A stretch of 62,137 nucleotides of DNA from Rickettsia typhi (GTDB lineage Bacteria > Pseudomonadota > Alphaproteobacteria > Rickettsiales > UBA1997), in the NCBI GenBank assembly GCA_945900795.1, contig CAMDJN010000001.1:1-62137 (forward strand). The letters are read 5' to 3'. Shown piece by piece: positions 1,459 through 28,997 of this stretch (its first letter is position 1; every line of letters begins with the position of its first letter). The position numbers and the translations under genes were made by a program. A model generated the notes under the pieces. That model did no database searches, had not been told where the DNA came from, and was given only the letters and a program-made list of their open reading frames with translations.

Positions 1459-2445
1459 ATGGTGTCACCTCGTAAAGATCAGGATAATAAATTTTCTAAA
1501 AGTGAATTGTTAGAATTCTACCGTGAAATGCTTTTAATTCGTCGCTTTGAAGAGAAGGCGGGGCAGCTTTACGGCATGGGTTTGATAGCAGGATTCTGCC
1601 ATCTTTACATCGGGCAAGAAGCGATCGCCACCGGCATGCGTTCTACGATGATTGATGGTGACAAAGTCATCACGACTTACCGTGATCACGGACACATGAT
1701 TTCTGCGGGAGCTGATCCAAAAAGAATCATGGCTGAGTTGCTTGGAAGGAGTGATGGATCCTCAAAAGGAAAAGGTGGATCAATGCATTTATTCGACACC
1801 GCTAAACATTTCTACGGCGGGCATGGAATTGTTGGAGCATCGGTTCCAATCGGCACGGGCCTTGCTTTTGCTGACAAATATCGTGGCAACAACAACGTGA
1901 CTTACTGCTATTTTGGTGATGGGGCTGCTAATCAAGGGCAGGTCTATGAAAGCTTCAACATGGCCAAGCTCTGGAACCTTCCGATACTATTCATCATTGA
2001 AAATAATCACTACGCAATGGGCACTTCACAAGCCCGCGCTTCCTCAATCGACGAGCTTCACAAACGTGGAGTTGGCTTCAATATTCCCGGCGTGAAAATT
2101 AATGGCATGGATGTTTTTGAAGTGATCAGAAACGGACAAGAATGTGTAAATTACGTTCGTGAAGGAAATGGTCCGATGATTGTTGAGATGGACACCTACC
2201 GTTACCGTGGACATTCAATGTCTGACCCCGCAACCTACAGAAGCAAAGAAGAGCTTAACTGCAAGAAGGAGCAAGACCCAATCGATTCCATCCGTACTCA
2301 CATTCTAACCAGCAAAATCGCTACTGAAGCTGATATTCAAAAAATTGATGATGAGATCAAAAAGCAAGTTAGCGATGTTGTTGAATTCGCGAAGAATAGT
2401 CCCGAGCCTGCTGAGTCGGAGCTCATGACTGAAATTTACAACTAG
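1459..2445 (+). CDS. pdhA: Pyruvate dehydrogenase E1 component, alpha subunit
   Basis: 328 aa. It has the ThDP-binding GDGA.NQG motif (YCYFGDGAANQGQVYES), plus RDHGH and YRYRGHSMSDP. Confidence 0.95.
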   Translation: MVSPRKDQDNKFSKSELLEFYREMLLIRRFEEKAGQLYGMGLIAGFCHLYIGQEAIATGMRSTMIDGDKVITTYRDHGHMISAGADPKRIMAELLGRSDGSSKGKGGSMHLFDTAKHFYGGHGIVGASVPIGTGLAFADKYRGNNNVTYCYFGDGAANQGQVYESFNMAKLWNLPILFIIENNHYAMGTSQARASSIDELHKRGVGFNIPGVKINGMDVFEVIRNGQECVNYVREGNGPMIVEMDTYRYRGHSMSDPATYRSKEELNCKKEQDPIDSIRTHILTSKIATEADIQKIDDEIKKQVSDVVEFAKNSPEPAESELMTEIYN

Positions 2446-2515
2446 AGACTCTCGATAATTTAATTACACCAAACAATATGACTAAGAATAAAGGTAAAGG
2501 AGTTCGCGTTGCAAA

Positions 2516-3358
2516 TTGGTACTGACTATTCAAATGGGGGGGGGTGTCACGTCAACAAATGGGGGTACGCCACTTTCTAAAAAAGTTGAGCCCTCGAGCC
2601 AGACTAATTTACCGAGTCAGGAAACGACAAACATGGACTTGCAGCCCACAGATACAAACACAGGTACAATCACAAATAAGGGCGATGGGAATAAAGAGGT
2701 AGGTTCAAAGCAGCTAGATGAAAAAAACAAAGGTGTGGACGATGGGGTGAAAGATAAGGGTGGGGATGGTAAGGAGGAAGAGGGTGATAAGGCGGCGAAT
2801 ATTTTTCTGATGATTGGTGGAGCGCTACTAATGCTAACTTGCATACTACTGATTTTTTTTGCTCCAGCTTTAGGTATAGCGGCTTTTGTGCCAGCTTTGG
2901 AAGGGGCGGCTGTAACTGGAGGGGTCGCGCTTGTTGGCGGGGCTGCTAGCAAACTTTTTAAAGAAAATCCAGATTCAAATAATGAAGTTGACAACAAATC
3001 ACCTAGGCCGGATGTAGAAAAAGGTAGAGGAAAAGAGTTAGAAACTGGACTAGACCACAGTCTAGCAACTAATTCAAAAGATGGTAAGGGGCCGGGTCAC
3101 AAAGTAGATCAGGATTCAGGTCAAAGTAATCCCTACGGTGCTACCCATGAACAATTGAAAGAATTTGATATAAATCACCCTTTTATGACTCAGGAAGATG
3201 AGAAGGCGGCGAGGGTGGAGGCACTTAAACAAGCAATAGATTCAGGGATAATGAGAGATCTATCATCTACTACAGCAGAGGGTGGAAATGAAGGTACATC
3301 ACCGCGAGCACCGACCTTTGCCGCGAGTGGTCAAGGTAGTATAAATATGAATAGATGA
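2516..3358 (+). CDS. Hypothetical membrane protein with a central bilobed hydrophobic domain. The likely real start is ATG 2534, which is followed directly by a G9 tract
   Basis: The ORF in the track begins at TTG; the first ATG is at 2534. Low-complexity G/K/D/E-rich N-terminal part, then about 55 hydrophobic residues (IFLMIGGALLMLTCILLIFFAPALGIAAFVPALEGAAVTGGVALVGGAA). The C-terminal tail is shared with ORF 3718-4518. Confidence 0.55.
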   Translation: MVLTIQMGGGVTSTNGGTPLSKKVEPSSQTNLPSQETTNMDLQPTDTNTGTITNKGDGNKEVGSKQLDEKNKGVDDGVKDKGGDGKEEEGDKAANIFLMIGGALLMLTCILLIFFAPALGIAAFVPALEGAAVTGGVALVGGAASKLFKENPDSNNEVDNKSPRPDVEKGRGKELETGLDHSLATNSKDGKGPGHKVDQDSGQSNPYGATHEQLKEFDINHPFMTQEDEKAARVEALKQAIDSGIMRDLSSTTAEGGNEGTSPRAPTFAASGQGSINMNR

Positions 3359-3360
3359 TA

Positions 3361-3443
3361 CTGACCAAAATTTACAATTAATCCAAACCAACATGACACT
3401 CAGAAAATTAACAGTTAGGGAAGCCTTACGCGAAGCCATCTAG
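3361..3443 (+). pseudogene. Duplicated pdhB leader plus first 16 codons (decoy pdhB start), ended by TAG
   Basis: 3361-3440 aligns almost base for base with 4529-4608, the genuine pdhB upstream region and start. It encodes [16 protein letters not shown] versus the genuine [19 protein letters not shown]. Confidence 0.85.
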
Positions 3444-3472
3444 AGTCTCTACTTTAATTACGCTAAATAACT

Positions 3473-3727
3473 ATGTCTAAAGAACTCAAACAAAAGTCTA
3501 AAGAACCCCAACAAAAGCCTAAAGAACCCCAACAAAAGCCCAGATTACTTAGCGATAAGATGGTTAGTAAACAGGAGCTTGAGGTGTATCTTCCTCTTTC
3601 ACAATTTTACGAAGACATGTCAGGCCTCACAAAAGAGCAAGAATCCAATCTGCTGGTTAATAGAGAGAAAGCGGAAGAGTATCAAAGAGAGGCGATAAAG
3701 ACTCAGGAAAATGGTGTATGCTTTTAG
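3473..3727 (+). CDS. Hypothetical protein with an N-terminal 7-aa (21-nt) tandem repeat
   Basis: 84-aa ORF with SKELKQK/SKEPQQK/PKEPQQK repeats. Its 5' flank is homologous to the flank after the pdhA stop. It overlaps the next ORF by 10 nt in another frame, so these may be two coupled genes or one frameshifted gene. Confidence 0.45.
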   Translation: MSKELKQKSKEPQQKPKEPQQKPRLLSDKMVSKQELEVYLPLSQFYEDMSGLTKEQESNLLVNREKAEEYQREAIKTQENGVCF

Positions 3728-4518
3728 AACAAGAATATCTGGTGCGCATGGTTAATTCTACTACAAATTACTCACGTTCTGCAAATAATCAGCAAGATAG
3801 TTATTCCCGGGAGATTATGGAACGAGAGAAGGATAACAAGAGAGCTGCAGAGGATCAAGTGATAAGTGGGATACAGAGAGATCAGGAAACCGAAATGGGA
3901 GATACTAAAGCTGAGTGGAGGCTTACAACCAATAACCTTGGTGAAGAGTCGATGCAACCTCAGAAAAAGAAAGATTATTTCATTAGCCATGGTTTTGGGA
4001 AAACAAATGTTAGAGAAACAGAAGGTCCTCTTCAATCGAGACCTGTAATAAATTATTACGCTCCGAAACAGTTCGCTTTTCATATGGAGGCTTCTGGATC
4101 AACACCGGGTTACAGTGTTGGTGATATTACAGTTATAACCAACGCTCAAATAATTAATAAAAAATTGCCCGAAGATCAAGAAGCAGAAAGAAAGAAACTG
4201 ACATGGGCAGATAAAGCAAAGGGTCTTTGGAATGATGGAGGCAAGACTCCTTGGCAGAGCATAAAGGCGATACTATCCCTGACATTTACAAAACAACCAG
4301 AAGAAGGTAAAAAAACTAATCAAGGCGCCGAAATGGGTGACTTTCAGAGTAATGAAGTGCAGAGGGAGGGGGCGATGGGGGGGGCACTTAAACAAGTAAG
4401 AGATTCAGGGATAATGGGAGATCTATCATCTACTACAGCAGATGGTGCGAAAGGAAATGGAGGTACATCATCGCCACCGACCGCTATCGCGACTAATAAT
4501 AAAGGTAGGGTAGTGTAA
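3718..4518 (+). CDS. Hypothetical protein; the C-terminal ~45 aa are paralogous to the tail of ORF 2516-3358
   Basis: 266-aa ORF. The tail ALKQVRDSGIMGDLSSTTADG... matches ALKQAIDSGIMRDLSSTTAEG... in the upstream ORF. A G8 tract lies at 4377-4384. Confidence 0.5.
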   Translation: MLLEQEYLVRMVNSTTNYSRSANNQQDSYSREIMEREKDNKRAAEDQVISGIQRDQETEMGDTKAEWRLTTNNLGEESMQPQKKKDYFISHGFGKTNVRETEGPLQSRPVINYYAPKQFAFHMEASGSTPGYSVGDITVITNAQIINKKLPEDQEAERKKLTWADKAKGLWNDGGKTPWQSIKAILSLTFTKQPEEGKKTNQGAEMGDFQSNEVQREGAMGGALKQVRDSGIMGDLSSTTADGAKGNGGTSSPPTAIATNNKGRVV

Positions 4519-4560
4519 ATAGATCATACTGACCAAAATTTACAATTAATCAAAACCAAT

Positions 4561-5553
4561 ATGACCCTCAGAAAACTAACAGTCCGTGAAGCCTTACGTG
4601 AAGCCATGACAGAAGAAATGCGCGCTAATCCAGAAGTTTTTGTGATGGGCGAAGAGGTTGCAGAGTACAATGGTGCCTACAAAGTTACGCAGGGACTGCT
4701 TGCGGAATTTGGTGAGAAGCGCGTGATTGACACTCCAATCACTGAGCATGGATTTGCAGGGCTTGGAGTCGGCGCAGCTTTTGCCGGCCTTACTCCAATC
4801 ATTGAATTCATGACCTTCAACTTTGCCATGCAGGCAATGGATCAAATCGTAAACTCTGCTGCAAAAACTAATTACATGTCGGGCGGACAAGTTCGTTGTC
4901 CAATTGTTTTTCGTGGACCAAACGGGGCAGCGTCTCGCGTTGGCGCTCAGCACTCGCAATGTTACGCCGCTTGGTATGGATCAATCCCTGGACTTAAAGT
5001 AATTTCTCCCTACAGCGCTGCTGATTGCAAAGGATTACTCAAGGCTGCAATTCGTGATCCAAATCCTGTAATTTTTCTTGAAAATGAAATCACCTACGGC
5101 CTCTCTTTCGAAGAGGATTACGATGATGATCATCTTGTTGAAATTGGCAAAGCAAAAGTTCTTCGTGAAGGAAAGGATGTGACAATAATCGCCTTTTCTT
5201 TAGTGGTAAAATATGCCCTTGAAGCCGCAGAAATTCTGGCTTCAAAAGGAATAGATGCAGAGGTAATTGACCTACGCACCATCCGCCCAATTGATCGCAA
5301 AACAATTGTTGAGTCGGTTAAAAAAACCTCACGCTGTGTAACGGTTGAGGAAGGATTTCCATTTGCTTCTGTAGGAAGTGAAATTGCTTCAATCTTGATG
5401 GAAGAGGCTTTCGATTACCTTGATGCCCCTGTAAAAAAACTTGCATCGGTTGATGCTCCACTACCTTACGCCGCAAATTTGGAGAAATTAGCCTTACCAA
5501 AAACTGAAAATATTGTTGCTGCTGTTGAAGAGATTTGCCGTGGGATTTTGTAA
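4561..5553 (+). CDS. pdhB: Pyruvate dehydrogenase E1 component, beta subunit
   Basis: 330 aa. [32 protein letters not shown] and the transketolase C-terminal region are typical of PdhB. Confidence 0.95.
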
Positions 5554-5577
5554 GGGATTTTATAAAAAATCGTTCAA

Positions 5578-5916
5578 ATGAAACAAAATTTTTTGTACAA
5601 GTTCATTAAACAAAATAATATCACTAAACCGACGTTTATCGGCTATTTCATAGCGATCGCGGTGGTTTTGTATTTTTCCTCTTTTACTATTTTTGGTGAG
5701 AAGGGTTTGATAAAATTATTTATCCTCAAACAACAAATCGCAGAAAAAAGTTCTTTAAAACACGAACTAAACTCTAAAGCTGCGGTAAAGAAAAACATGG
5801 TTGAAGGCATGAAACCAGAGTCTCTGGACATTGATTTATTGGACGAGCAAGCAAGAAGAGTTTTGGGATATGCTGGAAAGAATGAAGTGGTGGTTTACGA
5901 AGATAAGTCTAAATAA
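5578..5916 (+). CDS. ftsB: Septum formation initiator family protein (FtsB/DivIC-like)
   Basis: 112 aa with one N-terminal TM helix followed by a coiled-coil segment (GEKGLIKLFILKQQIAEKSSLKHEL). A pdh-adjacent position is common in alphaproteobacteria. Confidence 0.65.
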   Translation: MKQNFLYKFIKQNNITKPTFIGYFIAIAVVLYFSSFTIFGEKGLIKLFILKQQIAEKSSLKHELNSKAAVKKNMVEGMKPESLDIDLLDEQARRVLGYAGKNEVVVYEDKSK

Positions 5917-5925
5917 TTTGAACTG

Positions 5926-6534
5926 ATGATAATTCACGAATTGAAACGCAAATTATTTCACTTGCTGATCATTATTTTTCCTGTCACCTATTGCCTTGCC
6001 GGCAGATGGCCCAGCCTCCTACTCTTCTCCTCGTTAGGAATATTTGTTGTTTCATTCGACTATTTCCGTCACAAAAACCAATTCATTAATAATTTTTTTT
6101 GCAAGTTCTTTGGTTCGATATTGCGAGAGTACGAATTTAGCGGTAAAAGACTTTGTGGTGTAAGTTTTGTTTTCATCGCTGCATGCTTAAATTTTTTATT
6201 ATTTAAGACGGAAATTGCAGTTACAGCATTCTTCATTCTTGCGATTTCAGATGCCACCGCAGCACTGGTTGGTAAGATATTCTGTAGTTGGCCATTTTTT
6301 GAAAAATCATTTTTTGGTTCCCTAGCGTTTTTTGTTAGTGGGATTTTTATCTTGGTTACTTGTGGGATTATTTTTCACGTAGATTCCTGGTTTTACTTTT
6401 TTGGAATTTTTACCATAGCTTGTGTAACCATGCTGGAAGCGCGTCCAAGTCTAACCAAAATCGATGATAATTTTTTGATACCAATCGGATTTTCTACGAT
6501 ACTCGCCTTCTTCGACATCCTTTGGCATTACTGA
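5926..6534 (+). CDS. Polytopic membrane protein, dolichol kinase / phosphatidate cytidylyltransferase-like superfamily
   Basis: 202 aa, about 6 TM segments. The N-terminal ELKRKLFHLL motif resembles polyprenol/diacylglycerol kinase family proteins. Confidence 0.4.
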   Translation: MIIHELKRKLFHLLIIIFPVTYCLAGRWPSLLLFSSLGIFVVSFDYFRHKNQFINNFFCKFFGSILREYEFSGKRLCGVSFVFIAACLNFLLFKTEIAVTAFFILAISDATAALVGKIFCSWPFFEKSFFGSLAFFVSGIFILVTCGIIFHVDSWFYFFGIFTIACVTMLEARPSLTKIDDNFLIPIGFSTILAFFDILWHY

Positions 6535-6677
6535 TAAACGTAGAGCCTGTATCGTGAGAAGGAATCTTTACTAAACGCAGGAAAGAGCTCAACAAAATGT
6601 TGGATGAGATCAATAAGTTGGCGCAGAAATGGCGCAACTCTAAAGCATCCTAAACGATGAAACTAAAATCTCCTAAA

Positions 6678-6819
6678 GGGAATCTCTAAAAATTAGATTT
6701 TTTTTTAGAAATTTTTAGGCAACAAATTTTCGAGCAGGTAAGCGTACTTAGAGGTACGTGCTCGCGAGAAAATTTGGTAACAACAAAATTTACAAAAAAA
6801 ACAATTTTTAGAGGTTCCC
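6678..6819. mobile_element. Palindromic MITE-like element, family A, copy A1 (subfamily 1)
   Basis: Near-identical to 58508-58659. Ends are gggaatctctaaaaatt ... aatttttagaggttccc, with the core gcgagcaggtaagcgtacttagaggtacgtgctcgcgag. Confidence 0.8.
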
Positions 6820-6841
6820 TAAAGTTCTTTTTCCATTTTTT

Positions 6842-7027
6842 ATGGCCCTAGTCATGGCCTTAGTAATGTCTGGTTTTATGATTTTAATCAATGTTGGCTT
6901 TGTGTAGGGATTCTTTTTTATTTGGATGAGATCTTTTATTTTTGGCTTCTGCGTTGCCTTTCCAACTGCATTTTTTTTAGCACCACTCGTTCAGAGAATG
7001 GTTAAAAAAATCTGCGATGGAAAATGA
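6842..7027 (+). pseudogene. DUF2798-like membrane protein remnant with an in-frame TAG
   Basis: Translates to MALVMALVMSGFMILINVGFV*GFFFIWMRSFIFGFCVAFPTAFFLAPLVQRMVKKICDGK*. This is the DUF2798-like pattern interrupted by a stop. Confidence 0.55.
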
Positions 7028-7152
7028 ATATTTTGCCAGCAATTTTCTTCGGACATGGCAATCCGATGAATGCGATTGAAGAAAATTTTTACACTTTTAA
7101 CAGCGCAATTGATCTCGGATCAATCTCGATGCTTAGTGTAATTGCTGGTTAA
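7024..7152 (+). pseudogene. 4,5-DOPA dioxygenase extradiol (YgiD-like) remnant: the N-terminus is fused to the C-terminal tail by a large internal deletion
   Basis: The 42-aa ORF MNILPAIFFGHGNPMNAIEENFYTFN... matches the YgiD N-terminus (PALFLGHGSPMNVLEDNLYT). It then jumps to a C-terminal-like GSISMLSVIAG*. The full-length family is about 260 aa. Confidence 0.55.
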
Positions 7153-7155
7153 TTT

Positions 7156-7380
7156 ATGGCAAAATTTACGATCAGAAAATTACAAGAAAGAGGCTTCTTT
7201 AAGAATGGCTGGCTTAAGTCTTGCCACACATTTTCTTTTGCCGATTATTATGATCCGAAGCTCGTGAGTTTTCAATCGTTGCGGGTGATTAATGAGGATT
7301 TTATTGAGCCAAAAAAAGGGTTTGATTTTCATCCTCACAATAACAGGGAGATCATCACTGCTCGAAAATTTGTTGCCTAA
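7156..7380 (+). pseudogene. Pirin (YhhW-like) N-terminal fragment truncated by a half MITE
   Basis: ERGFFKNGWLKSCHTFSFADYYDPKLVSFQSLRVINEDFIEPKKGFDFHPHNNREIIT aligns with E. coli YhhW residues up to HPHKDMEILT. The reading frame then continues into MITE sequence (ARKFVA*). Confidence 0.8.
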
Positions 7381-7416
7381 AAATTTCTCAAAAAAATCTA
7401 ATTTTTAGAGCCTCCC
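7358..7416. mobile_element. Half copy of the family A MITE (left arm, inverted) abutting the pirin fragment
   Basis: ctgctcgaaaatttgttgcctaaaaatttctcaaaaaaatctaatttttagagcctccc is the reverse complement of the left arm of A1/A2. Confidence 0.7.
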
Positions 7417-7470
7417 TTGTTTCGAAAACCTTCTTCTGACTTCACAACTTTCCGATTTTAAGCCTTATTC

Positions 7471-9297
7471 ATGCTCTTCCCTAAGGACTTCCCAGACAAG
7501 CTCAGATCGTCAATTTTGGTTTCCGAAGTTGTTGGCAAAAGAGTAAAATTAAAACCCCGCGGCAGAGAGTTTTATGGGCTCTGTCCTTTTCACAACGAAA
7601 AAACTCCATCCTTTACCGTCAATGATCAGAAGGGTTTTTATCATTGTTTTGGATGCTCAGCCAATGGTGATGCGATTAGTTTTTTGATACAAAATGAAGG
7701 TCTAGAATTCAGGGATGCTGTTGTGCAATTGGCTAATGATTTTGGCATTCCAATTCCAAAGGTAAAACCTGAAGAATTCAGGAATAGCATGCCAGCAGAT
7801 GGGATAGAAAGAGACAGACTAATTCTTGAAAAGATCTGCGAATTTTTTGAAAAGAATCTTTACGATGAGATTGGAATCGAGGCAAGAAATTACCTTAAAA
7901 AGAGAAGATTGAGTAGAGTGATCGCAAAGAAATTCCGTCTCGGTTTTGCTAGGAATTCCTACGAATCATTGCTCAATTTTCTTAAATCAGAAAACTTTAC
8001 TGAGGCAGAAATAGCAAAGACCGGGGCCATAAATCGTAAGGATTCAAACAAGATTTATGACAAGTTTCGCAATCGCATAATTTTTCCAATTACTGACAAA
8101 AAAAATCGCATTATTGCTTTCGGCGGAAGAGTCTTGGGAGATGGTTTGCCAAAATATCTAAACTCTTCCGAGACAGAATTTTTTAAAAAGAGTCAAACTC
8201 TTTATAATCTTTTTCAAGCCCGCAAGCCTATATTCGACAAAGGCTACGCTGTAATCGTAGAAGGTTATATGGATGTAATTTCTCTAGTTTCGAATGGGAT
8301 CGAAAATGTTGTTGCAGGCCTTGGAACCGCAGTAGGAGACGAACATCTCAAGGAGCTTTTCTATATCACGGATAAAATCGTAATTTGTTTGGATGGTGAT
8401 GAGGCTGGGATTCGTGCTGCAAAACGTGTTTCAGAAATCTCTCTTTCGCTAATTACTTCTAAAAAAAATATCAGTTTCGCATTTTTACCAAACAAAATGG
8501 ATCCAGATGATTTTATTAAAGAATTTGGCAAGGATGAGTTGGATAAGAAGCTGTCACAAGCGATCCCGCTCTCTGAAGGCCTCTTCGAATTTTCCATGCT
8601 TGATCTTGGAATTGATAGGGGAGTAAAGATTTCTGCAGAAAATAAAGCTAAGCTTGAAGCGAGTCTATCCGCTAAAATCAACGCGATACAAGACCAATCT
8701 TCTAAAAAATATTTCTCACTTTTTTTTAAGGATTCGCTATTTTTCTTGGGAAGGAATGATAAAAAATCTAAGGGTAAAAATGAGTTTGAGTTGGTACAAA
8801 GAATTCATTCAAAACCATCATCTCGACCCGCAGATTCAATAGCTAGAAGCATTCTTGCATATATCATAAAATTTCCAGGCCTAATCAATTTTCATGACGA
8901 AGATTGTGACGTAAAGGGATTGCAGTTTACTAACGAAAATCTTACCAATGCTAAAGATTTGTTGGTTGAACTGTTAGAAAATGAATCCGATCTTTTGTCG
9001 GATGAAATCTTGACCTATCTGGAAGGTCAGGGTTTTTATGAGGATGTTGTTGAGATACGAAAAATCATTTCTGATTTCAAAAACAGTAATTTAGACATTG
9101 ATTCTGCAACATTCAGAATTCGTATTTTATTATTGCGCAACGTGTTGTTGCAGGCTGACTTGCAATATCGTGATCTTTTGAAAGAGAGCGAAATAGAAAC
9201 GCATCAAACAGAAATCATAAATCCGAAAATCACGGAAATTTTTAATTACAAAAACTCACTTGAGCAGAAAATTATTTTGCTTGAAGGAGATTTGTAA
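7471..9297 (+). CDS. dnaG: DNA primase
   Basis: 608 aa. It has the CHC2 zinc finger (CPFHNEKTPSFTV...YHCFGCSANGD) and the Toprim region (VEGYMDVISL, DGDEAG). Confidence 0.95.
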   Translation: MLFPKDFPDKLRSSILVSEVVGKRVKLKPRGREFYGLCPFHNEKTPSFTVNDQKGFYHCFGCSANGDAISFLIQNEGLEFRDAVVQLANDFGIPIPKVKPEEFRNSMPADGIERDRLILEKICEFFEKNLYDEIGIEARNYLKKRRLSRVIAKKFRLGFARNSYESLLNFLKSENFTEAEIAKTGAINRKDSNKIYDKFRNRIIFPITDKKNRIIAFGGRVLGDGLPKYLNSSETEFFKKSQTLYNLFQARKPIFDKGYAVIVEGYMDVISLVSNGIENVVAGLGTAVGDEHLKELFYITDKIVICLDGDEAGIRAAKRVSEISLSLITSKKNISFAFLPNKMDPDDFIKEFGKDELDKKLSQAIPLSEGLFEFSMLDLGIDRGVKISAENKAKLEASLSAKINAIQDQSSKKYFSLFFKDSLFFLGRNDKKSKGKNEFELVQRIHSKPSSRPADSIARSILAYIIKFPGLINFHDEDCDVKGLQFTNENLTNAKDLLVELLENESDLLSDEILTYLEGQGFYEDVVEIRKIISDFKNSNLDIDSATFRIRILLLRNVLLQADLQYRDLLKESEIETHQTEIINPKITEIFNYKNSLEQKIILLEGDL

Positions 9298-9324: not shown

Positions 9325-11841
9325 ATGAAAAAAACTACAAAATCTCAAAGTAAAAAAGTCAAAATTATGGCCAAGAAATCTCCAGTTAAAAAGGTAAAAA
9401 TAGCACAAAAGACCCTAAAAAAATTAGCTCAGAAAATAGCTCAGAAGGTAGTTAAAAACTCGGTCGTAAAAACGATAAAGAAGCCATTAAAAGCAACTTC
9501 AAAAACTACGAAAATTGTGAATAAGAAGTCTCACACAAAAACAGTTATATCTAAGATAAAAAAGCCCTTAGTCAAAAAAACTTTAGTCAAAAAAACTCCC
9601 ATCAAAATTAAGGTTAAAATATCTACAAAAAACTTACAAAAAAAACAGCCACAAATTATTAAGAAAAATAATCCTGTAATCAAAAATTCCGATAAAAAAC
9701 CGGCAAAAAAAATACTAAAATCTGTCGTTACTAAATCTGCAAATAAACTCGTCGCAAAAGCTTCTAAGTCAGGTAAGGTGGTCAAAAATTTACACCCAAA
9801 AAAGGCGAAACAAAAAAATAATCAGGAAGAAAAGCCGCCCACAACTCTGGTTAGAGCGAAGTCAAAAAAAAACGTTCCCGCCAATGACAGAACAAGTTTT
9901 CTTGTCGAAAAATTTCAACTGATTCAAGGCGTAAAATCTGCCCTGCAAAAAAGAGATGAAGAGGGAAGGAAGCTCTCAGAAGAGTTGGGAAGCGTCGTTA
10001 AAAAGCTTTTATCACTTGGAAAGAATCAGGGGTTTTTGACGCATGAGCAAATTAACGAGCATGTCGATTCGGACATAGATTCCCGCAAGATGGACCGCAT
10101 ACTCGATATTTTATCTGAGTTCAAAATTCAGGTTGTTGAGAAGGAGGATGATTTAGAAAATTTGATAGATGAAAACCTGGCAACGAAAGAAGAGGAAAAA
10201 AGTCAAAAACGCAGCGAAGACTCCGTTAAGACTTACCTGAAATCAATGAGTACTGTAAAGCTCTTAACAAGAGAAGATGAAGTCTCGATTGCGATGCGTA
10301 TTGAGGAAGGGCGCAACAAAACTATTAAATCGCTTTACCAGAGCCCAATTACAATGCACCATTTTGTTGAGTGGTATAACGGTTTGTCTGGCGGTACGAT
10401 TTTGCTCCGTGACCTAATCAGAATTGATGAGACTTACAATTCCGAACTTGAAGAGATGATGCGAAATAGTGAGCAGTCAGAAAGCGAGGAAGATATTACC
10501 GCGCTAATCAACGGTCCAGTTGATTCTGCCTCAGACAATCCTGATGAAAATTTATTTGAAGATGATGAGCTTGAAGAGATAGATGAAAGCGTTGTATCCT
10601 TCGTTTCAATGGAGCGCATCCTCATGCCGAAGATGCTCGACCTATTCCAAAGAATATCGCAATTATGCCAAAAAATAATCGACAAATCCGAAGGAAAATC
10701 CTACGAGCGCGCCAAAAAAGATAAAGAAATAAACAAGCTAAAAGAAGATTTTGAACAATTTGCTGAAGAGGTAAGTTTTAATGATTCTCTTATCAAAGAT
10801 TTAGTGGAGCAGCTTTACGAAGCGCAGCAAAAGCTGATCGGTGTTGAAGTTGCGCTGCTTAAACATGCACAAGAATTTGGTGTTGATAAGGCGACATTCC
10901 TTAAAAACTATCACGGATTTGAAGAGAAAGGATGGCTAGAAAATGCGAAAATGGTCAAAGACAAAAAATGGCAAAATTTTCTTACCAACGGTGCCGAAAA
11001 AATTCACGAAACCCAGAAAAAAATTTCTAAATTTGCCCAGATCACGGGCCTCTCAATTCCTGATTTTAAAAGACTCCTGAATAGTATTCACAAGAGTCAG
11101 GACGAGGAATTGAAAGCAAAAAAAGAAATGATCGAAGCCAATCTGCGCTTGGTTGTTTCTATTGCTAAAAAATATACCAATCGCGGTTTGCAGTTTTTGG
11201 ACTTGATTCAAGAGGGAAATATCGGATTGATGCGGGCGGTTGATAAATTTGAATATCGCCGTGGTTATAAGTTTTCCACTTACGCTACTTGGTGGATTCG
11301 CCAAGCCATTACACGTGCCATCGCAGATCAATCGCGCACTATCAGGATCCCAATCCACATGGTTGAAACCATCAACAAAATCGTCAAAACTTCTCGCCAA
11401 CTTACGCAAGAACTAGGGCGCACTCCTGATGCGCAAGAAATTTCTAACAGATTGTTGATGCCGGTTGATAAGGTTAGAAAAGTTCTCAGAACATCGAAAG
11501 ATCCAGTGAGTCTAGAATCTCCAATCTTAGGAGATGATGAAGAAAGTGTTCTTGGAGATTTTATCGAAGACAAAAGCGCGGTATTACCTTTCGACGCAGC
11601 ATCTCATACGAAACTAAAAGAAATTGCAGCCCAAATGCTTTCATCACTTACCCCAAGAGAGGAGAGGGTGCTACGCATGCGCTTTGGTATTGGTATGGTA
11701 ACAGATCACACACTAGAAGAAGTCGGAAAGCAATTTTCTGTAACGCGTGAAAGAATCAGACAAATTGAAGCTAAAGCTTTAAAGAAATTACAACATCCCA
11801 AAAGAGCAAAATTATTAAAAAGCTTTTTACAGGATATGTAG
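9325..11841 (+). CDS. rpoD: RNA polymerase sigma-70 factor RpoD with a lysine-rich N-terminal extension of about 190 aa
   Basis: 838 aa. Regions 2-4 are unmistakable ([90 protein letters not shown]). It follows dnaG, as is canonical. Confidence 0.95.
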
Positions 11842-28853: not shown

Positions 28854-28997
28854 TATACCCAACCAACCTCAAGAAGCTGATTGGGTATAGTTTTTATTTT
28901 GTACGCGACACGAAGTCGCCCCCCCCAAGAATTCTTGGCTTACGGGGTCCCTATATACCAAGCAGAGTTCGGTATCTTCAATCGTGTTTGGTATATA
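28854..28997. repeat. Composite hairpin repeat, family B, copy B1
   Basis: It is the reverse complement of 51601-51730. The modules are tatacccaaccaac..gttgggtata, a gcgacacga..tcgc segment with a C8 run, and tataccaa.cagagttcggtatcttcaatcgtgtttggtata. Confidence 0.75.

Follow-up and report, generated by a model that had tools for sequence, protein, structure and literature searches.

Two kinds of described rearrangement come closest to the locus reported here. Insertions with long target duplication show repeats of at least 46 base pairs (bp) over the 3' end of a gene and hold no mobility gene (PMC2853133). Displacement arrays, such as the immunity-gene arrays of the T6SS (type VI secretion system) in Vibrio cholerae, keep gene stubs and have been attributed to homology-facilitated illegitimate recombination (PMC5361080). 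Here we describe a block of two head-to-tail units lying between pdhA (E1 alpha) and pdhB (E1 beta) on contig CAMDJN010000001.1 (assembly GCA_945900795.1, filed as Rickettsia typhi), a complete public contig of 62,137 nucleotides (nt) that we analysed whole and call the window. The pdhA stop codon (TAG, 2443-2445) and the pdhB ATG (4561) are 2115 nt apart, in agreement with the 2.1 kilobases (kb) reported by a first-pass annotation of this DNA; unit 1 occupies 2443-3440 and unit 2 occupies 3441-4608. That annotation had found the arrangement unrecognisable, a judgement that no longer stands, since the junction proves to be an insertion hotspot in relatives and comparable scars have been published (PMC2853133, PMC5361080). 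On present evidence, the structure is an informative recombination scar with orphan cargo, and not a new kind of cassette system.

Both units end in the same succession of elements, namely a relic of about 35 nt of a pdhA 3' end, an 11-nt spacer and a pdhB start. In an insert-free relative (L130) the junction of the two genes reads ...ATGACTGAAATTTATAATTAA-ATCAAA-ATGAC..., and in both window units the corresponding stretch reads ...CTGACCAAAATTTACAATTAA-TC(C/A)AAACCAA(C/T)-ATGAC.... When all 35-mers of the window were scored against the last 35 nt of pdhA from 55 relatives, the real pdhA end (2411) ranked first, position 3347 second (z about 6) and position 4515 third (z about 5), so that a direct repeat of the pdhA end borders the insert on both sides. 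The relics are identical to the window's own pdhA end at 21-23 of 35 positions, and a blastn comparison of 3362-3439 with the intact L130 junction gave an E value of 6e-8. These direct repeats of more than 30 bp (2411-2445, 3347-3381 and 4515-4549) align with a target that is present in single copy in insert-free relatives. We also considered whether the whole C-terminal block of the units could be a decayed copy of the pdhA 3' region, and rejected this, there being no significance past the 19-35-nt relic.

The two pdhB starts differ in their fate. At 3393-3440 the first encodes 16 residues and then runs into TAG, and the second is the start of the real gene, as the first-pass annotation had concluded. 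Within the window, the decoy is the second-best match to the pdhB starts of relatives (on average 36.9 of 47 positions, compared with 38.2 for the real start and 24.4 for the next match), and it retains the ATG, the frame and all 15 amino acids. Such decoy starts and relics can mislead gene callers.

The homology between the units extends beyond these copies of the ancestral junction. The segment 3204-3440 (237 nt in unit 1) aligns with 4367-4608 with three small indels and 90% identity in its gapless parts, and a 59-nt core pattern of this 3' block occurs twice in the window, where shuffled sequences predict none. At the other end, the leader at 2443-2480 recurs at 3441-3475, the two being alike at 30 positions and unlike at 4, with 5 gap columns; its alignment score of 24, against a null of 9.9 +/- 1.9, was reached by none of 1000 shuffles. 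A further likeness, between leader 1 and the relic, spacer and ATGAC of the pdhB start, is weak and suggestive only (score 18 against a null of 10.6, reached in 6 of 1000 shuffles). Between the shared ends, the centres (2504-3203 and 3501-4366) have no DNA or translated similarity, with a Smith-Waterman score of 16 against a null of 17.2 +/- 2.1, and similarity between the units ends sharply at about 3204-3210. The sharp boundary and the null-level score together rule out centres that are merely highly diverged, and argue for replacement, not drift. The distal end of the segment is joined to its proximal start, as in a tandem array, by a novel junction at 3440/3441 where nucleotide 47 of pdhB meets the TAG; the whole-length homology of a tandem duplication is absent, as the centres are unrelated. 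A short stretch at 2480-2503 (the mini-ORF start, TKNKGKGV; ORF, open reading frame) matches 4491-4514 (the very end of ORF2b, TNNKGRVV) at 83%, which is near chance level.

Most of what the first-pass annotation had claimed about these repeats is upheld by our self-comparison, which reproduces the recurrence of the flank of the pdhA stop, the duplicated 80-nt block with its wider 3' homology, the lack of relationship between the centres and the fusion of the pdhB start to the pdhA stop flank. Its description of conserved 3' cassette ends is right as to homology, and fails as to their being purely cassette sequence, since they consist in part of pdhA relic, spacer and pdhB start. No further copy of the conserved ends exists in the window besides the two units, and no other carrier was present in any database searched. 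An exact 23-mer of the relic had no match in metagenome contigs, and a profile search with the shared C-terminus yielded no candidates, although such a search is weak for a 60-residue query and the two source proteins were themselves unlisted.

Comparison with relatives places the insert in a broader context. In the closest species-representative genomes (PdhB 88% and 82% identical), only 1-30 nt separate pdhA from pdhB and the downstream synteny is the same, the order pdhB-divIC-membrane gene-dnaG being shared with the window. Using a degenerate pattern of the PdhB N-terminus, we recovered 57 metagenome loci, of which 55 hold both genes, with PdhB 81-92% identical; their freshwater origin is judged from contig names alone. 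The gap is at most 62 nt in 44 of these 55 loci (normal range 0-62 nt), which bears out the supposition that the two genes are normally adjacent. At six loci, five of them distinct, unrelated, co-oriented cargo of 0.8-1.9 kb fills precisely the space from the pdhA stop to the pdhB start, and inserts of at least 700 nt are found at 0 of 100 neighbouring junctions (pdhB-divIC, divIC-membrane gene and membrane gene-dnaG), a difference with a Fisher p of 0.002, or 0.005 without the duplicate. The cargo belongs to at least four unrelated types (Table 1), as at a hotspot; it is set in with spacers of 0-11 nt or with ATGA stop/start overlaps, and no integrase is present. None of it resembles the window insert, of which only the decoy and relic align to relatives. 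From this comparison of loci, the pdhA-pdhB junction is a newly recognised, lineage-wide intra-operon insertion hotspot.

This comparative result is the more useful one, in that restriction-modification (R-M), toxin-antitoxin (TA)-like, ATPase and orphan genes without promoters of their own recur in this clade between the genes for E1 alpha and E1 beta. An integrase-free, intra-operon hotspot of this kind could be used to study how accessory genes are gained and expressed in streamlined genomes. On a broader reading, which we hold to be improbable, accessory genes that lack a promoter would have in the pdhA-pdhB junction of this freshwater clade of alphaproteobacteria a dedicated place to dock without an integrase. 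Several relatives carry other features near these genes. In L085, a seventh locus with a short insert, a REP-like (repetitive extragenic palindromic) hairpin with a perfect 12-bp stem, GTAGTGGAGGGTTTCAAACCCTCCACTAC, follows the pdhA stop directly, and next to it comes an IS200/RAYT-like fragment. At the pdhA-pdhB junction of L109 stands an insert of 83 nt that is GC-rich and has the potential to form a hairpin. In the close relative L132 (PdhB 91% identical; pdhB start at 1005 after orientation), the gene upstream of pdhB encodes an ABC-transporter ATPase and is not pdhA, the two pdh genes being unlinked there. The 82%-identical relative, a Rickettsiales metagenome-assembled genome, encodes an 845-aa (amino acid), low-complexity, coiled-coil-rich protein a few kb upstream of the pdh genes (L003, 35-2572), without counterpart in the window.

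The distribution of differences between the units constrains their history. Over codons 2-15, the decoy and the real pdhB start differ at 6 synonymous and 0 nonsynonymous positions, a pattern with a probability of about 3e-4 to 9e-4 under random substitution. Synonymous divergence in this pdhB fragment (6 of 11.2 sites) also exceeds the divergence of the adjoining relic and spacer (3 of 43; Fisher p 0.001) and that of the block encoding the shared C-terminus (the C-block; 8 of 81; Fisher p 0.001). Synonymous-only change, together with its excess over the flank, points to two functional pdhB alleles that diverged in different lineages, and the jump in divergence at the start codon requires exchange with a diverged functional pdhB allele. 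All sampled relatives are at most 80% identical to the window pdhB in DNA; for this reason no donor can be named, and a sliding-window breakpoint search in pdhB was uninformative. In the shared ORF C-terminus, all 8 differing codons are nonsynonymous and none is synonymous, so that, as far as codon differences can tell, this part shows no sign of purifying selection.

The history that we favour, tentatively and at slightly less than even chances, is that the 2.1-kb block is a passive recombination product at the pdhA-pdhB hotspot, in which two already diverged alleles were joined. An ancestral gene with the shared leader and C-terminus would have inserted about 35 nt before the end of pdhA and duplicated its target, leaving a decaying pdhA 3' relic ahead of an untouched spacer and pdhB start. 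In one lineage the centre would later have been replaced, with sharp breakpoints near 2500 and 3204, to give two alleles with common ends. A single illegitimate join of pdhB nucleotide 47 to the pdhA stop codon would then have set the two diverged alleles in tandem, most likely by additive homology-facilitated illegitimate recombination with DNA of a related strain, anchored in pdhA or pdhB. At least one more homologous exchange would have imported a diverged functional pdhB 5' end. We favour a two-allele join because a diverged array would at once be stable against RecA-mediated homologous collapse, and because the N-terminus encoded by the decoy remains perfectly that of PdhB. Stubs are present in the form of relic and decoy, and the junction is non-homologous, with only 0-1 nt of microhomology.

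Several observations weigh against this history. A microhomology of 0-1 nt is below that typical of homology-facilitated illegitimate recombination. Single-unit strains (pdhA-unit1-pdhB or pdhA-unit2-pdhB) were not found in the searched collections, and since the conserved ends occur nowhere else in these collections, the two alleles are hypothetical. Exact searches with the PdhB, DivIC and ORF proteins for further samples containing the same species returned run ERR3719165 alone. Relics and decoys were sought in the inserts of relatives and none was convincing, so that one mechanism common to all inserts is not demonstrated. Finally, every model has to call on one more homologous exchange to explain the discontinuity at the pdhB start, and a duplication in situ then fits too: given an import of pdhB, and with 7% non-coding divergence, about 1.2 nonsynonymous changes are expected in the decoy and none is seen (P about 0.3).

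Such an in-situ duplication is unlikely in our estimate, and it survives better than the other alternatives. Unequal sister-chromosome exchange would have copied the DNA that starts with the pdhA stop and ends with codon 16 of pdhB, after which foreign DNA would have taken the place of one centre, and homologous recombination with a diverged relative would have imported the real pdhB 5' end or the whole of pdhB. Tandem duplications are the commonest bacterial rearrangement, the geometry of the junction is exactly that of a tandem duplication, and the hotspot makes replacement of a centre plausible. However, two direct repeats of about 1 kb must then have escaped homologous deletion, and we infer that they would have had to survive long enough for their ends to diverge by 7-12%, and by about 25% in part 2 of the C-block. 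In addition, a decoy that has kept its start codon, frame and every residue weighs against this account, and the number of events is no lower than in the two-allele model. The proposal in the first-pass annotation, a tandem duplication of the whole pdhA-pdhB spacer, is thus supported in its geometry, whereas simple duplication followed by drift does not account for the 6/11.2 synonymous changes against 3/43 non-coding ones.

Whichever route produced it, the block leaves an operon that may well be functional. Transcripts begun at the pdh promoter probably extend through the cargo, as no terminator-like site stands at the unit ends. The gap from ORF1 to the decoy is 34 nt, and that from ORF2b to pdhB is 42 nt. 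The decoy is probably translated into a 16-aa peptide whose TAG lies 29 nt before ORF2a and so reproduces the pdhA-stop context of unit 1. Retention of the native pdhB leader suggests that the essential operon still works. The locus would offer a natural example of foreign or orphan genes entering an essential operon without breaking it; because the target is duplicated, neither the end of pdhA nor the native leader of pdhB is lost, and the relic and decoy record the order of events.

The genes carried by the two units are orphans. Among 5.8e9 clustered proteins, ORF1 matched only itself; the fused ORF2 and ORF2b likewise returned self matches from 5.8 billion clustered proteins and from an exhaustive HMMER search of 1.84 billion representatives, in which ORF2b had one extra weak match (P0006, E 5e-5) in nine short stretches. 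Searches of Pfam, NCBIfam, PADLOC and PHROGs gave nothing significant for the insert ORFs, and a profile search of the PDB gave spurious matches only (an engineered repeat protein and beta-galactosidase). These ORFs are therefore not old conserved families, a condition on which the first-pass annotation had made its interpretation depend. The N-terminal part of ORF1 is rich in Gly, Lys and Asp and its C-terminal part is hydrophilic, with a strongly hydrophobic core between them (residues 85-134 or so, nt 2786-2935; KD19 hydropathy maximum 2.79); ORF2 has no hydrophobic segment. Three 21-nt tandem repeats in ORF2a (3475-3537) encode K(E/S)(L/P)(K/Q)QK-type repeats, and ORF2a and ORF2b would be either a single frameshifted gene or two coupled genes. 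An AlphaFold2 model of ORF2b (predicted local distance difference test, pLDDT, 53) is unreliable and too poor for a fold search. In-frame codon scores of 0.30 bits per codon for ORF1 and 0.21 and 0.22 for the other two fall within the range of host genes (0.35 +/- 0.08, minimum 0.17), which indicates that the insert ORFs are coding now or were so recently. Taken together, we infer that ORF1, a small predicted membrane protein, and the hydrophilic ORF2a/b are fast-evolving orphans.

A resemblance to FlgM in the shared C-terminus was examined and set aside, the motif RVEALKQAIDSG scoring E 0.16 and 12.7 bits against Pfam PF04316 (cut-off 25) and a below-threshold E 0.36 against TIGR03824, with no FlgM in the PDB profile search. 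The shared motif (A)RVEALKQAIDSGIMRD, at 3206-3262 and 4369-4425, has this below-threshold, unconfirmed likeness to FlgM models.

The insert could also be read as a programmed variation, or contingency, locus, in which poly-G slippage would turn ORF1 and ORF2, taken to be surface or secreted proteins, on and off, with centres exchanged through the conserved leader and C-terminal block from donor copies in the genome or population. The G9 tract at 2536-2544, right after the ORF1 ATG, and the G8 tract at 4377-4384 are the only G runs of at least 7 in 62 kb (0.15 runs of at least 8 expected), and both lie inside these ORFs. Contigs of the Logan assembly break exactly there, L082 beginning inside G9 and L001 right after G8 (4385). 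The hydrophobic membrane core of ORF1, the 21-nt repeats of ORF2a, the 8:0 excess of nonsynonymous differences in the C-terminal block and the sharply bounded conserved ends around unrelated centres all fit as well. We nevertheless hold this reading to be improbable. The contig starts could reflect phase variation or merely difficulty in sequencing, poly-G breaks being common technical events in short-read assemblies, and neutral evolution, too, would be expected to give an 8:0 ratio (P about 0.1). No other copies of the ends appear in the window, in relatives or in the one exact 23-mer metagenome scan, and the conserved end is in part just the ancestral pdhA-pdhB junction. Moreover, the ATG in the leader does not share the frame of ORF1, and ORF2 comes in two pieces, features that resemble decay. 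If the contingency reading were true, a membrane or secreted protein that changes all the time would be expressed from a housekeeping promoter. The sole C homopolymer of at least 7 in the window, a C8 at 28919-28926, is intergenic, between the DNA polymerase III gamma/tau gene and a Kdo transferase gene.

An artefact, whether a chimeric join of two co-occurring strains with one cassette each or an amplification chimera, appears very improbable. It would find some support in the assembly having come from an uncultured sample, with the species known from a single run, and in the resemblance of the units to alleles. However, the identical junction is held by two different assemblies: Logan contig L082 (run ERR3719165) equals window 2543-3985 base for base and crosses 3440/3441, and L001 of the same run is an exact substring, window 4385-6705. 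Here the evidence consists of assembled sequences, and the public contig and the Logan assembly may derive from the same reads. The junction and the pdhA end have only about 6 nt (CTAGAG) in common, too short for a k-mer graph to mis-join, and the repeated ends differ by about 10%; together these make a graph mis-join or a collapsed repeat unlikely. That the decoy does not stem from collapsed or duplicated reads, a possibility raised by the first-pass annotation against itself, is supported by the same two facts, the second assembly holding the junction and the divergence of the copies. An assembler artefact at 3440/3441 is thus unlikely as judged from the assembled sequences, and at that level the two-unit structure is confirmed.

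The locus was also searched for mobility machinery. Integrase, transposase and mobile-element Pfam domains were absent from the insert ORFs and from the neighbouring window ORFs scanned, no terminal inverted repeats were found on the insert, and Rfam gave no match in it. The 3' blocks have no inverted repeat, and their single-strand folding is unexceptional (z -1.2 to +1.4). Promoter- and terminator-like sites show no excess and none stands at the unit ends, two terminator hits lying inside ORF1. Although co-oriented, promoter-less ORFs stand in tandem with a repeated 3' element, a site-specific, integron-like cassette array or a transposable element in the operon is hardly credible, because integrase and transposase are missing among the scanned ORFs, the conserved ends have neither inverted repeats nor a stable single-strand hairpin, terminal inverted repeats are lacking and the repeated 3' element derives from pdhA and pdhB. 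The swappable cassettes envisaged in the first-pass annotation find no backing here, with no integrase, attC-like structure, further copies or other carriers found.

Other parts of the window also carry unusual features. A 936-nt gap (6535-7470) separates the gene for a 202-aa membrane protein from dnaG, a distance of 7-141 nt in relatives, and holds, besides one other short ORF, a piece of a Pirin N-terminal domain that is truncated (7156-7380, E 3e-8); by comparison with relatives, this gap is a second lineage-specific insertion or a pseudogene remnant nearby. Same-strand ORF overlaps of 50-98 nt occur at 32513-34069/34020-35108/35011-36144 and at 20375-23665/23583-25481, and may represent either over-extended starts or frameshifts. 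The product of rpoD (9325-11841) has 838 aa, with region 1.1 from about residue 225 and hence a long N-terminal extension.

Table 1. Features of the pdhA-pdhB locus in the window and cargo at the same junction in relatives
Sequence	Feature	Position	Strand	Remark
Window	pdhA (E1 alpha, 328 aa), intact	1459..2445	+	Pfam E1_dh 1.7e-100
Window	Last 35 nt of pdhA, left copy of duplicated target	2411-2445	+	Best 35-mer match to relatives' pdhA ends
Window	Leader 1, non-coding, after pdhA stop, 32 nt	2446..2477	+	Homologous to leader 2
Window	Dead mini-ORF, 15 codons (MTKNKGKGVRVANWY, then stop)	2478..2525	+	ATG aligns with ORF2a start; out of frame with ORF1 body
Window	ORF1, 274 aa, orphan	2534..3358	+	Self match only
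Window	G9 homopolymer, directly after ORF1 start codon	2536..2544	+	
Window	Conserved 3' block, unit 1: last ~50 ORF1 codons, pdhA relic, spacer, decoy	3204..3440	+	
Window	Relic 1 of ancestral pdhA 3' end (...LTKIYN, TAA), in-frame TAG decay	3347..3381	+	35-mer scan, alignment, blastn
Window	11-nt spacer, unit 1	3382-3392	+	After relic 1
Window	Decoy pdhB start: 47 nt from the 5' end of pdhB, and a C; 16 codons, then TAG	3393..3443	+	
Window	Leader 2, 29 nt	3444..3472	+	Homologous to leader 1
Window	ORF2a, 84 aa, orphan	3473..3727	+	Same sequence in Logan contig L082
Window	ORF2b, 266 aa, orphan, no hydrophobic segment	3718..4518	+	10-nt overlap with ORF2a, other frame
Window	Conserved 3' block, unit 2: ORF2b C-terminus, relic 2, spacer, first 48 nt of real pdhB	4367..4608	+	
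Window	G8 homopolymer, 5' edge of ORF2b conserved C-terminal block	4377..4384	+	
Window	Relic 2 of pdhA 3' end	4515-4549	+	Third-best 35-mer, z about 5
Window	Spacer, unit 2	4550-4560	+	Between relic 2 and pdhB
Window	pdhB (E1 beta, 330 aa), intact, ancestral leader kept	4561..5553	+	Pfam Transket_pyr + Transketolase_C
L114	N6_N4 DNA methylase + partner ORF (R-M)	1539-3436 (pdhB-oriented)		
L092/L102	N6_N4 DNA methylase + partner ORF (R-M)	L092 1265-3183 (pdhB-oriented)		
L097	Signal-peptide ORF + DUF4160 + DUF2442 (TA-like pair)	6927-7803 (pdhB-oriented)		
L105	AAA_15/AAA_21 ATPase	5753-7351 (pdhB-oriented)		
L107	263-aa orphan	591-1382 (pdhB-oriented)		
L085	Hairpin + IS200-like Y1_Tnp fragment	~680-940 (pdhB-oriented)		Seventh locus, 263-nt insert

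Set against known systems, the locus shares with Anaplasma msp2/p44, Neisseria pilE/pilS and poly-G loci its conserved ends, variable centre and G tracts within ORFs. In contrast to msp2/p44 and pilE/pilS, no donor copies were found in the 62-kb window, and the centres, far from being hypervariable versions of one protein, have no relation to each other at all. With integron cassette arrays it has in common tandem, co-oriented, promoter-less ORFs, each with a related 3' element. An integron is defined by intI with attI and by attC at the 3' ends of cassettes; here intI, attI and the attC palindrome are lacking, pdhA lies directly upstream of the array, and the 3' element copies the pdhA/pdhB junction. 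Like integration hotspots and flexible genomic islets, for example those of defence systems, a single core-gene junction receives unrelated accessory genes according to lineage. Unlike them, it is internal to an operon, where the genes on either side encode two subunits of a single essential enzyme; spacers are short or replaced by ATGA overlaps, and neither integrase nor tRNA is present.

The displacement arrays, which include the orphan C-termini of Rhs and contact-dependent inhibition (CDI) systems as well as V. cholerae T6SS immunity genes, are closer still in form, in that a module is added beside the resident, stubs are kept, and conserved sequence alternates head-to-tail with unrelated variable parts; they differ in having toxin or immunity genes, in contrast to the housekeeping-operon anchor and the two units only of the present locus. 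Insertions with long target duplication (Nobusato/Kobayashi; Furuta et al. 2010, PMC2853133) differ from our locus in cargo, which here consists of orphan ORFs and not R-M genes, and in structure, the repeat here being diverged and the insert made up of two units in tandem, with the pdhB decoy as a second stub. With these insertions the locus nonetheless shares a gene-sized insert, target repeats of more than 30 bp, the absence of a mobility gene and a repeat that covers the 3' end of the resident gene, here pdhA; and R-M genes, the classic cargo of that class, fill the very same junction in the relatives L114 and L092.

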